Source: a candidate division TM6 bacterium GW2011_GWF2_32_72 (GTDB taxonomy: Bacteria > Babelota > Babeliae > Babelales > CAIQNR01). From it: DNA of 64,000 bases. The stretch is from contig CAMCVM010000005.1 in NCBI GenBank assembly GCA_945882015.1, forward strand, positions 7,376-71,375, in the 5' to 3' direction. A program made the position numbers and the translations under genes. Under the pieces are notes generated by a model. The model ran no database searches and was not told where the DNA came from. It saw only the letters and a program-made list of their open reading frames with translations. Position 1 is the first letter of the stretch. Each line of letters opens with the position of its first letter. Positions 35,813 through 43,327 of the stretch are shown piece by piece.

Positions 35813-38800
35813 TTATTGCACAGCTGATTGTGGCATTACATAAAGCGGTAGATTAATTTCGGCATCACTAATCATTTTAGGAGCTGTAAGTCTTAATGGT
35901 TCGTCTTGAGCAACAACAAGTCCACCTAATTGCCCTTGTATTGCTTGCATATCAGCACCACTTATAACCGCTCCGGTTGGAACTCCTGTTGCATCAAACA
36001 CAAACGAACCTTCTTTGTTAACCGCTGGATAACTTATGTATTGACCTGCTTCAGCGCCGATAAATGCATCTTTTGCTGTTACTTTATACACAACAGTTTT
36101 TGTTACACTGTCATAGTACAACTGATTGATATGTCCGCTCATGGTAGTAAACAGATCAGCAACTCGTTTTAAACCTGCTGCTTTTTGTTCTTGTAATGCG
36201 GCAACTTGAGTATTGACAAGACTATTAGAAGATTTTAAAGAACTTTGCGATTGAGCAGTGCTTAATGAAACTGATTTACCAGCAGGAATTACTGCGACAG
36301 GTTGACCCAAAAGCTCTGTTGGTCGTGGCTTACCTTGTTGATAGGCAAGGTTTTGTTGTGCTGTATTATTTGCAGTAGCGGCAGTCATGGAATTAGTTAA
36401 ACTGTCTTGTATTATTTTTATTTTTTTATCATAAAAATCTGTTACCTGAGCAGTAATGGTTGTTTTATAATCTGCAAACGAGCCTGTACTTCCTGGACGG
36501 CCGATTACTTGATCATTCAATTGTGTAAGCCCATTAACATTAAGGAATGGAACCAAGGTTAATACACCTTGTGAAGAAGTAACGGGCATCTTTTTAAGAG
36601 GCATATAATATTGCTTAACTAAATCTGGTTGCTCTGTTTGCGGGAACTGAAATTGATAAACATAACTAGTATTTTTATAAATAAAACCAAAATACGCAAC
36701 ATCATGCGGAAGCTGTGAACCAACCGCTTGAGTTGGCCACTGAGTACATGCTCCTTGCATATCTTGTCCATTACAATATAAAAGCGGCGAAATTGCTTGA
36801 ACAAAGCTCATCGAAACTAGGCTATTGTTGTACCAATTATGCTTAATCGGATCAAGAGCAAAGTAACGATACATCCATATAAATCCAGTTACATCAGCTT
36901 TATTTTCAGAGTTGGCACTATTGTCTTTAAACAGGAGTGCATTATTTAATAATAAAGTACTCATTTGGCTCAACTGTGTAGCCCCTTGGGTAACATCTCG
37001 TTGGCCAAGAAATTTTAATACGGTTGGAATAATCATTGCAGATCCATCAGAATTAACTGCTTTTTTGAATACCCCTAAAGATACTGGATTTTCAGAATCT
37101 TCCACATCATACACATTCCACTGGTCAGTACTTTCTGAAAAATATGCATCAATGTATAACGGAGCTGGGTCACTTGCTTGTGTGTATCCAATATTCATCA
37201 TTGCATATAATGTTTGCGATGCGATCAACCCACTTTGTTGAGCTTCTTGCAATGCTGTTGCCATATTACCAGCTGCCTGAATAGTAAGTGGTTTAGTTTC
37301 AACAGCAGCAAGATCAGGAGCCCATGACTTAATAACTACTTTTGGACTTTTTGCCTCAACTTTATAAACACCACCATCAGCTATTCCTCGTGGATTATCA
37401 GCTGTTGCTTTTGCAGGATTCAAGTAAGTAAAATTATAAATTTTTGCTGCGTCGGCAGTAGTATATTGATACATAACACCTTGATCAATTGGTCTATACT
37501 GAGCAAATCGATTGAGTGCAGAATCTGTTGTAGAAAAATGATACGGCATGAACAACGTCATTGCTTCATCTTGCCCCCATACTACTAACGGAGCTTGTGT
37601 AATAAATGTTCCATCTGTTTTTTGTGGCAAATAAGCAACTGTTTCAATAGCCATTGGTTGTCCATCAATTGAATACTCAAGGCCACTGACTAAACTTACA
37701 TAATAAGGAGCACCCTTTTTAGGATTAACTTGTAATAAAATATCTGATGGAGCATGAGGAGTAAGTAAATCTTGAATTTTTACAGAAGTTCCAATACCAG
37801 TTTGTAATAATGCTGAAGCGTTTGCAATGTTATAATAAAGGTATGAAGATGTTCCATCAGCAGAGGTTAAAGCTGGACCTGAACCAATTAACTTCATCAC
37901 AACCCCATCTTTACCACCGGCTAAATTTTTATCTGCATCAGCCATTGCAAGAGCTTTTCTTTCAACTGCAAACGTAATTGATTGTTTCCCCGTAGTTTGA
38001 TCAATAGTAACACCATGAGCAGTTGCCATAGTTATTGCAGCTGAACCGGATAACACATTAACCGCATTAATTGTTCCAGTAAGAGACAAGGTAGAACCAA
38101 CTGCGGCTTGATCTAGAGAACTTTCTTGATCAATAGCAACTGTTGTTTGCATTTGATCAGTTATTTCAAAATAAACACCTGTTGGAAATTGATTGATATA
38201 AATATCAGCTGCAGCTTGTGTTTGACCACTTGCTGTAACCGATGCAATATTAAATGCATAATACCCTACTGTTTTAAATCCTTGAGCAGAAGTTGTTGCA
38301 GCAGCAGTAGTTGGAGTTTGCCTTACATAATAATTACCATTACTGTCTTGATACATATTACCACTGTCAGAACCTGTCCCTGCAACTCTTGTTAACGTTG
38401 TTGGAAATACAAACGAAGTTTTTTTGGTATTAATCAGTTGCACTACTAATTGTTCATACGACATATCAGCAATACCTAAATCTTGAGCTTGTTGTTGCTG
38501 AATTTTTTGTACTAAATCTTTAACGTATGCCTGATTTGCCTGACTAATAGTAGACTTTAATGAGCTTTCTATACTATTTAAACTGTTACCTTCAAGAATA
38601 GTCATAATAGTTGCAGCAAATTGATCAAGTGATAACGTTCCACTTTTTGTTGCAACCAATGTGTCATACTCAATAATATGATCCTGTCCATTAACTTGCC
38701 ACAACAAATCTTCGGCATGCGATCTTGTATATTTAATACCAGAAACTAAACTTACTACTGCCGTTGTTGTTAAGTCTATTGGACCACCCCATTGTAAAGC

Positions 38801-43327: not shown

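Follow-up and report, generated by a model that had tools for sequence, protein, structure and literature searches.

The stretch of DNA analysed here (the window; 64,000 nucleotides (nt) of contig CAMCVM010000005.1, assembly GCA_945882015.1) comes from a candidate division TM6 bacterium and carries on its minus strand the gene of a protein of 2,504 amino acids (aa), which we call the giant. Sequence comparisons support its membership of an undescribed protein family. We tentatively read it as a stalk-and-head protein that is specific to its lineage, exported by the Sec route and placed in the envelope or on the cell surface, serving in host contact or as a coat.

A first-pass annotation had reported a 2,504-aa open reading frame (ORF) at positions 35813-43327 and left its strand unstated. 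The frame is single and unbroken, starts with ATG and is the largest ORF and gene of its 819-kb Babeliales (Dependentiae/TM6) genome, which comes from lake water, is 92 % complete and holds one copy of it. A strong Shine-Dalgarno-like sequence, AAAGGGGG, stands 6 nt 5' of the start codon, and the intergenic gap upstream measures 104 nt; promoter-like sites such as the one listed in the table below are no more numerous than in shuffled sequence. The GC content of the gene (0.35-0.37) is the same as that of its flanks. Many lake and freshwater metagenomes contain DNA near-identical to the window, and full-length copies of the giant (2,500-2,514 aa) were found in several independent assemblies. 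One Babeliales metagenome-assembled genome (MAG), in a 632,655-bp contig, has the giant annotated in pieces of 415-640 aa (P0006-P0008, P0013, P0014), which is probably an assembly frameshift error and not a pseudogene.

No Pfam or NCBIfam model matched the giant, and no Pfam model matched the bodies of 19 orthologs. A word-indexed search recovered just five 90 %-clusters. Using a profile of aa 456-1340 built from 19 orthologs and a cut-off of E <= 0.001, we recovered 151 relatives among 1.84 billion representative proteins, most of them 1,700-2,900 aa long and the rest fragment-like. A profile search of the Protein Data Bank (PDB) with a 23-sequence alignment returned only coiled-coil noise from the stalk, and in the literature on giant and surface proteins of Dependentiae we found no description of the family. 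The new class proposed by the first-pass annotation is thus borne out at the level of the family, and provisionally at that of the fold.

The N-terminus has the layout of a signal peptide, as had been annotated: basic residues and a hydrophobic core are followed by small residues and then AEF. The n-h-c layout, ending in (A/G/S) before M/G/A-E, is kept in all 23 aligned full-length orthologs. It fits signal peptidase I, with cleavage probably around LQS/AEF. A lipoprotein reading was rejected: where a lipobox would read [LVI][ASTVI][GAS]C the giant reads TLVC and so has Val at position -1, the 23 orthologs do not keep a lipobox, and Cys17 is present in only 3 of them. A general sorting signal following the signal peptide (SAEF / ME-G) was likewise rejected, with 9 loose matches among the 254 signal-peptide-like ORFs of the genome.

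The body is poor in Cys (0.4 % versus 1.4 % in the other proteins of the window) and its composition differs further from theirs, E, K and R being about halved and A, G, S, T, Q and V raised. The sparse Cys pairs noticed earlier are present, and two of them co-vary across orthologs: of 23 sequences, the 5 that have Cys at residue 1067 are also the 5 that have it at residue 1076, and the same correspondence holds for residues 1128 and 1156, in 7 sequences. Pairs gained and lost together are the expected signature of lineage-specific disulfides, which we predict here. Taken together, the conserved signal peptide, the co-varying Cys pairs and the Cys-poor, low-charge composition favour an exported, extracytoplasmic body over a cytoplasmic one. 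The source genome encodes two Omp85 and two secretin proteins and is therefore that of a diderm; in agreement with this, two gspD copies are reported for every TM6 genome studied, as is the loss of lipopolysaccharide (LPS) synthesis in Babeliales (PMC4776705; PMC6561590).

Between signal peptide and body lies the region that the first-pass annotation described as a coiled coil of about 430 aa with a Pro repeat. The repeat is found at aa 134-154, as NPTDPVNPDVINPGTDPVNP, and the region is rich in E, K and A (12.7, 12.5 and 12.0 %) with weak PDB profile matches to tropomyosin, SMC, colicin E3 and ATP-synthase b. But only at aa 71-105 and 176-245 does the heptad-register score rise above the 95th percentile of shuffles, and Pro/Gly breaks occur at 134-183, 253, 303-306 and 405-418. 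The stalk is a segmented helical region, only partly coiled-coil-like, and not one 430-aa coiled coil. The segment preceding the conserved Phe of the hinge ranges from about 220 to 540 aa among orthologs. In a comparison of the giant with two relatives (loci L033 and L034, 81-82 % identity), the stalk is the fastest-evolving part, with a ratio of nonsynonymous to synonymous substitution rates (dN/dS) of 0.3-0.5. This highest dN/dS, the variable length and the low-complexity E/K/A composition fit, and suggest, a spacer.

The stalk is followed by a Gly/Ala/Phe-rich hinge that serves as the family's sequence landmark: across 23 sequences F477 never varies and P480 hardly does. The hydrophobic stretch of the first-pass annotation is indeed there (LAALGEWIWSQLSMGFAFMIPGMLV, aa 460-484). 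As a membrane segment we would accept about 19 or more residues with a mean Kyte-Doolittle hydropathy of at least 1.6, the hydrophobicity being kept in orthologs; the 19-residue mean is 1.30 in the giant, under this usual cut-off, and orthologs span values from below 1.25 up to 1.86, so that the hinge is not hydrophobic enough throughout the family for a membrane anchor. The argument that coiled coil plus hydrophobic segment typifies membrane-penetrating proteins is weak here, since the hydropathy is below threshold in the giant and in several orthologs and the coiled coil is partial. AlphaFold2 models aa 457-501 as one long helix that runs into the first body domain and has the hinge as its C-terminal end; this placement at the end of the stalk helix, of low predicted local distance difference test (pLDDT) confidence, was also weighed against membrane penetration.

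The body had been annotated as large and beta-rich. AlphaFold2 instead modelled both halves as mixed alpha/beta, with long helices and helical sub-domains; each run was built from a 19-sequence alignment, and mean pLDDT was 60.7 for aa 456-1340 (mostly 70-90 over aa ~485-915) and 54.3 for aa 1341-2504. Conservation within the family peaks at aa 481-600. Searched with Foldseek against PDB (twice) and BFVD, the two low-to-moderate-confidence models gave no match with a probability above 0.11; the best PDB match had E 0.067 and a probability below 0.1, and weak propeller-like matches were not significant. No full-length match to a known family was found either. The confidence of the models limits the weight that 'no known fold' can bear.

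Profile-profile comparison of the two body halves with hhalign revealed an internal repeat (probability 95.7 %), a module of about 85 aa with the consensus GxYIY ... DYVV ... SLVxGxxY(D). Hidden Markov models (HMMs) built from single copies find the others: the copy-2 HMM recovers copy 1 at 1.2e-4 and copy 3 at 3.9e-3, and the copy-3 HMM recovers copy 1 at 4e-8 and copy 2 at 5e-4. When the module HMM is iterated, each ortholog is left with roughly three copies; the giant has weaker resemblances to the module at aa ~527-580, ~1829-1890 and ~2412-2450, which stay below significance. When the module profile was searched against PDB, a DUF3494 protein was hit at E 0.007 (domain i-E 0.11) over SLVTGxVY only, which we judged to be chance. 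The module also occurs in a second giant of the same genome, outside the window (G000:C2 from 54002, plus strand; 1,681 aa, with a signal peptide), in two copies (E 6.5e-5 and 3.4e-7). In this second giant a Gly/Ala-rich stretch is very hydrophobic and the tail is rich in Tyr, Gly and Ser; Pfam gave nothing meaningful above threshold. Module-bearing paralogous ORFs of 1,350-1,650 aa were seen in five other genomes (G085, G049, G096, G097, G063).

The C-terminal end of the giant is not conserved across orthologs and lacks a terminal aromatic residue (F/W/Y). Many shorter orthologs (1,770-2,090 aa; L017, L018, L020, L029, L030; families f7, f11, f13) carry a strongly basic, K/R-rich tail. Absent from the giant itself, this tail may be a clade-specific anchoring or binding element.

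We searched 261 Dependentiae genomes, all in the same order as the source genome. By profile the family was found in 49 of them, spanning 25 of 145 genera, and by single-sequence search in 23. Orthologs can be aligned over the entire body at about 20 % identity, whereas the neighbours in the locus are 40-68 % identical; the giant diverges much faster than they do. Among 20 giant-bearing loci that were fetched, the giant is adjoined by pepA in 18 and by the TrxR-thioredoxin (TrxR-Trx) fusion gene in 17, often with ftsW beyond. The close relatives L033 and L034 use the same slot, as does G060; there the ortholog (L049:3688-10440, minus strand) is 2,250 aa long, contains three modules and lies in the same neighbourhood. 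G060 is probably the cultivated Chromulinavorax destructans, which would then have an ortholog; a locus search with the G060 protein as query gave no match. The giant of G053 (P0023) is labelled at NCBI as belonging to an 'Alteromonas naphthalenivorans' MAG (MFT6765267.1), a record that is almost certainly mislabelled or mis-binned.

None of 14 sampled genomes without a family match has a giant upstream of pepA. In several giant-less genomes (loci L035-L043) the slot is filled by a secreted alpha/beta hydrolase of about 350 aa (Hydrolase_4, up to 5.7e-12), so that it is a variable site. On a PepA tree, presence of the giant requires 3 changes versus 10.7 in shuffles, and none of 500 shuffles scored as low, a pattern that leaves room for a single origin. 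From the syntenic slot and the clustering on the tree we conclude that the giant is inherited vertically in part of the order and is not mobile. Horizontal acquisition was considered and found unlikely, given the uniform GC content as well as the slot and the clustering. By the working definition of the family, the giant has a signal peptide, an E/K/A stalk, a (G/A)F(A/S)(F/L)xxP hinge, an alignable body, at least three modules and the TrxR-Trx/pepA slot.

The giant is under purifying selection. Its dN/dS against L033 and L034 is 0.19-0.20, versus 0.05-0.14 for TrxR-Trx, PepA, FtsW, IleRS, MurD, FtsX and the AAA protein. Tightly constrained stretches (dN/dS <=0.08) are found at aa 501-600 (0.06-0.08), 1001-1100 and 1501-1600.

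Known classes of large exported proteins were considered one after another. The first-pass annotation had seen no RTX, YD, autotransporter or LPxTG motif, in agreement with the absence of Pfam and NCBIfam matches. Substrates of type I secretion systems of the RTX kind (HemolysinCabind GGxGxD repeats, no signal peptide, a C-terminal secretion signal) were rejected on zero matches and on the signal peptide of the giant. Rhs/YD-repeat proteins (RHS_repeat; TIGR01643) gave no match. For type V autotransporters and two-partner secretion (TPS) exoproteins, there was no match to PF03797, the YadA anchor or PF05860, and the C-termini do not end in F/W/Y; no large beta-barrel is seen in the models, themselves of low confidence. 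Sortase anchoring, for which a monoderm host and a C-terminal LPxTG with hydrophobic stretch and basic tail would be expected, was set aside on the C-terminus, LPLYVMPQSAVQ, which lacks LPxTG, and on the diderm genome. The class of coiled-coil tethers with an S-layer homology (SLH) domain (SlpA, Ompalpha) was rejected with no PF00395 match, a partial coiled coil and no barrel, and Tc toxin A subunits and large clostridial toxins with no Pfam match, PDB coiled-coil noise and the Foldseek E of 0.067.

The giant resembles these classes in part. Like the YadA/BadA and FHA adhesins, the giant has a signal peptide, is very large, combines a variable helical stalk with globular or repetitive domains, evolves fast and is proposed to contact a host. 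Unlike them it has no autotransporter barrel, no YadA head, neck or stalk motifs and no TPS domain; its stalk lies N-terminal to the body and does not lead to a C-terminal anchor, and its body is modelled as mixed alpha/beta and not as a beta-helix. Thermotoga maritima Ompalpha is a coiled-coil rod with a hydrophobic end, and Deinococcus radiodurans SlpA consists of an SLH domain, a coiled coil and a large outer-membrane domain. The giant shares with both the order of signal peptide, long helical rod and hydrophobic or membrane part, and the setting of an atypical diderm outer membrane. It differs in lacking an SLH domain and a large beta-barrel, in its extra 2,000-aa body and in being missing from most of the order. 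With Tc toxin A and the large clostridial toxins it shares a length of about 2,500 aa and a hydrophobic or amphipathic region beside long helices, and its C-terminal motifs YYxDLxxGxxYxxDG and YVDxxxGxxYDxxG superficially recall Tyr/Gly-rich binding repeats. Unlike these toxins it has a Sec signal peptide, none of their Pfam domains and a vertical inheritance at a fixed locus.

Table 1. Positions in the window of the giant, its parts and its neighbours (aa numbering of the giant).
Feature	Position	Strand	Basis or remark
Giant ORF P0001, 2,504 aa	35813..43327	-	ORF list; full-length copies in independent assemblies
Signal-peptide-like N-terminus, aa 1-29	43241..43327	-	K2/K8; hydrophobic core aa 9-27, Kyte-Doolittle mean 1.96
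E/K/A-rich helical stalk, aa 30-455, Pro/Gly-segmented	41963..43240	-	composition, profile matches, heptads
Pro-rich linker NPTDPVNPDVINPGTDPVNP, aa 134-154	42866..42928	-	highest dN of the gene, 0.37-0.38
Gly/Ala/Phe-rich hinge, aa 459-487	41867..41953	-	motif (G/A)F(A/S)(F/L)xxP(G/N)
Best-modelled body part, aa 485-915, mixed alpha/beta	40583..41875	-	pLDDT mostly 70-90; no Foldseek match in PDB/BFVD
Module copy 1, aa 756-851	40775..41062	-	GxYIY ... DYxVxV ... SLxxGxxY; HMMs from copies 2 and 3
Module copy 2, aa 961-1046	40190..40447	-	hhalign probability 95.7 %; HMMs
Module copy 3, aa 1471-1539	38711..38917	-	hhalign, single-copy HMMs, alignment
Long helical hairpin, aa ~2284-2402	36122..36478	-	second model, helices 944-990 and 1017-1062; mixed pLDDT
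Small conserved C-terminal beta domain, aa ~2403-2480	35888..36121	-	YVDxxxGxxYDxxGxPxG; pLDDT 71-87
Promoter-like site TTGAAA-18-TATCCT	43364..43393	-	in the 104-nt gap upstream; consensus match only
TrxR-Trx fusion, 502 aa, upstream neighbour	43432..44940	-	syntenic; also beside pepA without the giant
PepA, leucyl aminopeptidase (M17), downstream neighbour	33567..35090	-	syntenic

Two further neighbours were analysed. Beyond TrxR-Trx, an AAA/FtsH-like protein of 1,048 aa (45128-48274, plus strand) forms with it a conserved divergent pair, which is kept in most sampled Babeliales genomes whether the giant is present or not; TrxR-Trx is in tandem duplicate in four loci (L016, L017, L019, L028). 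Lying 33 nt downstream of the giant, a 194-aa protein (35195-35779, minus strand) has two C2H2 zinc fingers (zf-C2H2 1.6e-10). Unlike all its neighbours this gene has a dN/dS of about 1.0 against the two relatives (80-84 % identity, a very low dS of 0.07-0.12), which points either to neutral or adaptive evolution or to recent exchange. Loci L013 and L024 contain further C2H2 arrays at other sites.

In the stalk-and-head reading that we tentatively prefer, the signal peptide would carry the chain over the inner membrane and be cleaved there. The E/K/A-rich helical region, poorly conserved and of about 220-540 aa, would act as a spacer, and the hinge would link it to the body, either packed against the body or lying at a membrane interface. 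The mixed alpha/beta body of about 2,000 aa would fold in an oxidising compartment with lineage-specific disulfides, and its working surface would comprise the three modules and the conserved C-terminal beta domain. This surface would most likely meet host structures, in attachment or entry, or coat the LPS-less envelope; exit from the periplasm, if any, could use the GspD-type secretin pair, the sole evident route in the genome. Directly shown are the integrity of the gene, the limits of the family, its synteny and selection, the module repeats, the covariation of Cys and the composition; from these we infer cleavage, where the protein ends up, what the hinge does and any contact with a host.

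We counted in favour of the stalk-and-head reading the intact and selected gene, the conserved signal peptide, the signs of an extracytoplasmic body, the spacer-like stalk, the Omp85 and secretin genes together with the reported loss of LPS, the module shared with the second exported giant and the cost of the largest gene of an 819-kb genome. Moreover, single copy, fixed slot, clustering on the tree and purifying selection fit a structural component of the surface or envelope better than a mobile toxin. Several points weigh on the other side. The family is missing from about 80 % of Dependentiae genomes, so that the giant is not a universal envelope component, and in G007, which appears to be Babela massiliensis, there is no giant and the slot is occupied by other genes. 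No outer-membrane anchor is recognisable, be it a beta-barrel, a terminal aromatic residue, a conserved lipobox, or an SLH or OmpA-like domain, and the crossing of the outer membrane by a 270-kDa protein, or its retention there, is unaccounted for. None of the RNA-seq runs searched for the giant contains the gene, nor did we find proteomics on it. The lack of a known fold, finally, partly reflects poor models from only 19 sequences.

The first-pass annotation had offered adhesin, toxin or translocator, and no test run here separates these directly. A released or surface membrane-active factor (a translocator, pore-former, vacuole-escape or fusion device) whose hinge would insert into a host membrane is unlikely in our estimation. 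By analogy, such a hinge could be likened to the fusion peptide beside the heptad repeats of class I viral fusion proteins: it is the landmark of the family, with its invariant F477 and nearly invariant P480, comes directly after a long helix, and is rich in small residues and moderately hydrophobic, as membrane-interface peptides are. The life of C. destructans makes some membrane-active factor plausible, the bacterium having been seen in the food vacuole of its host, with replication enclosed by an expanded host mitochondrion (PMC6561590), and its probable genome has an ortholog. Yet hydropathy below 1.25 in several orthologs means that an ability to insert is not evidently conserved, no likeness of sequence or fold to pore-formers, Tc toxin, large clostridial toxins or fusogens was found, most Dependentiae, intracellular too, do without the gene, and fixed position with vertical inheritance is unusual for toxins. 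More specifically, that the hinge inserts only conditionally, making the giant a Sec-exported analogue of fusion or penetration proteins for breaching or docking with a host membrane (food vacuole or mitochondrion) by means of a fold and a module that lack known relatives, seems to us decidedly doubtful. An envelope tether or scaffold, in which the stalk would span the periplasm with the hinge in or at the outer membrane, by analogy with Ompalpha and SlpA in an LPS-less diderm, is rather improbable as well. The domain order of these two proteins, the loss of LPS genes in Babeliales (PMC4776705; PMC6561590), the single-copy, vertically inherited gene near ftsW and murD, and the K/R-rich tails of many orthologs, which could bind peptidoglycan or lipid, speak for a tether. 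But a stalk whose length differs more than two-fold is an odd ruler of the periplasm, there is no SLH, OmpA-like or LysM domain and no predicted beta-barrel, and a basic tether would be expected to be universal or recognisably replaced, whereas the giant is absent from most of the order.

The neighbourhood could also be seen as an effector-delivery locus, in which the giant would be the translocator and the C2H2 protein the cargo, while TrxR-Trx would be the redox partner and the motor would be the FtsH-like AAA protein. These four genes are adjacent; TrxR-Trx, giant and C2H2 gene point the same way, 104 and 33 nt apart, with no terminator-like site between the last two; most loci show synteny of TrxR-Trx and giant; and the body, with its co-varying Cys pairs, could be a redox client. 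We regard this as very improbable: in most of the giant-less genomes sampled, TrxR-Trx, the AAA gene and pepA are still linked, so that their linkage is independent of the giant, the C2H2 gene adjoins the giant only in its closest relatives (L033, L034) and evolves at a dN/dS of about 1, and in G060 two other genes lie between giant and TrxR. It is hardly credible, finally, that the giant is a bitopic inner-membrane protein with aa 459-487 as transmembrane segment, a periplasmic stalk and a cytoplasmic body of 2,000 aa. A cleaved signal peptide and one transmembrane helix would yield this topology, and in some orthologs the hinge reaches a Kyte-Doolittle mean of 1.7-1.9 over 19 residues. However, the giant itself has a value of 1.30 and three orthologs fall below 1.25, and the conserved signal peptide, the disulfides indicated by the Cys pairs and a Cys-poor body unlike the other proteins of the window in composition make a cytoplasmic body unlikely.

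Dependentiae are widespread obligate parasites of protists, and how they attach to, enter and remodel their hosts is the wider question. About 44 % of C. destructans proteins carry export signals, and in the literature on Dependentiae we found no report of a dedicated effector-injection system. As the costliest gene of its genome, in a slot kept across several families, the giant is probably important at the interface between bacterium and host or in the LPS-less outer membrane. It is also one among many orphan exported giants of this phylum. New here are a family of 151 representative sequences, a domain of about 85 aa common to at least one other exported giant, and a conserved hinge motif, each of which offers structural work a concrete target. 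If G060 is C. destructans, its ortholog makes localisation and function directly testable in culture.

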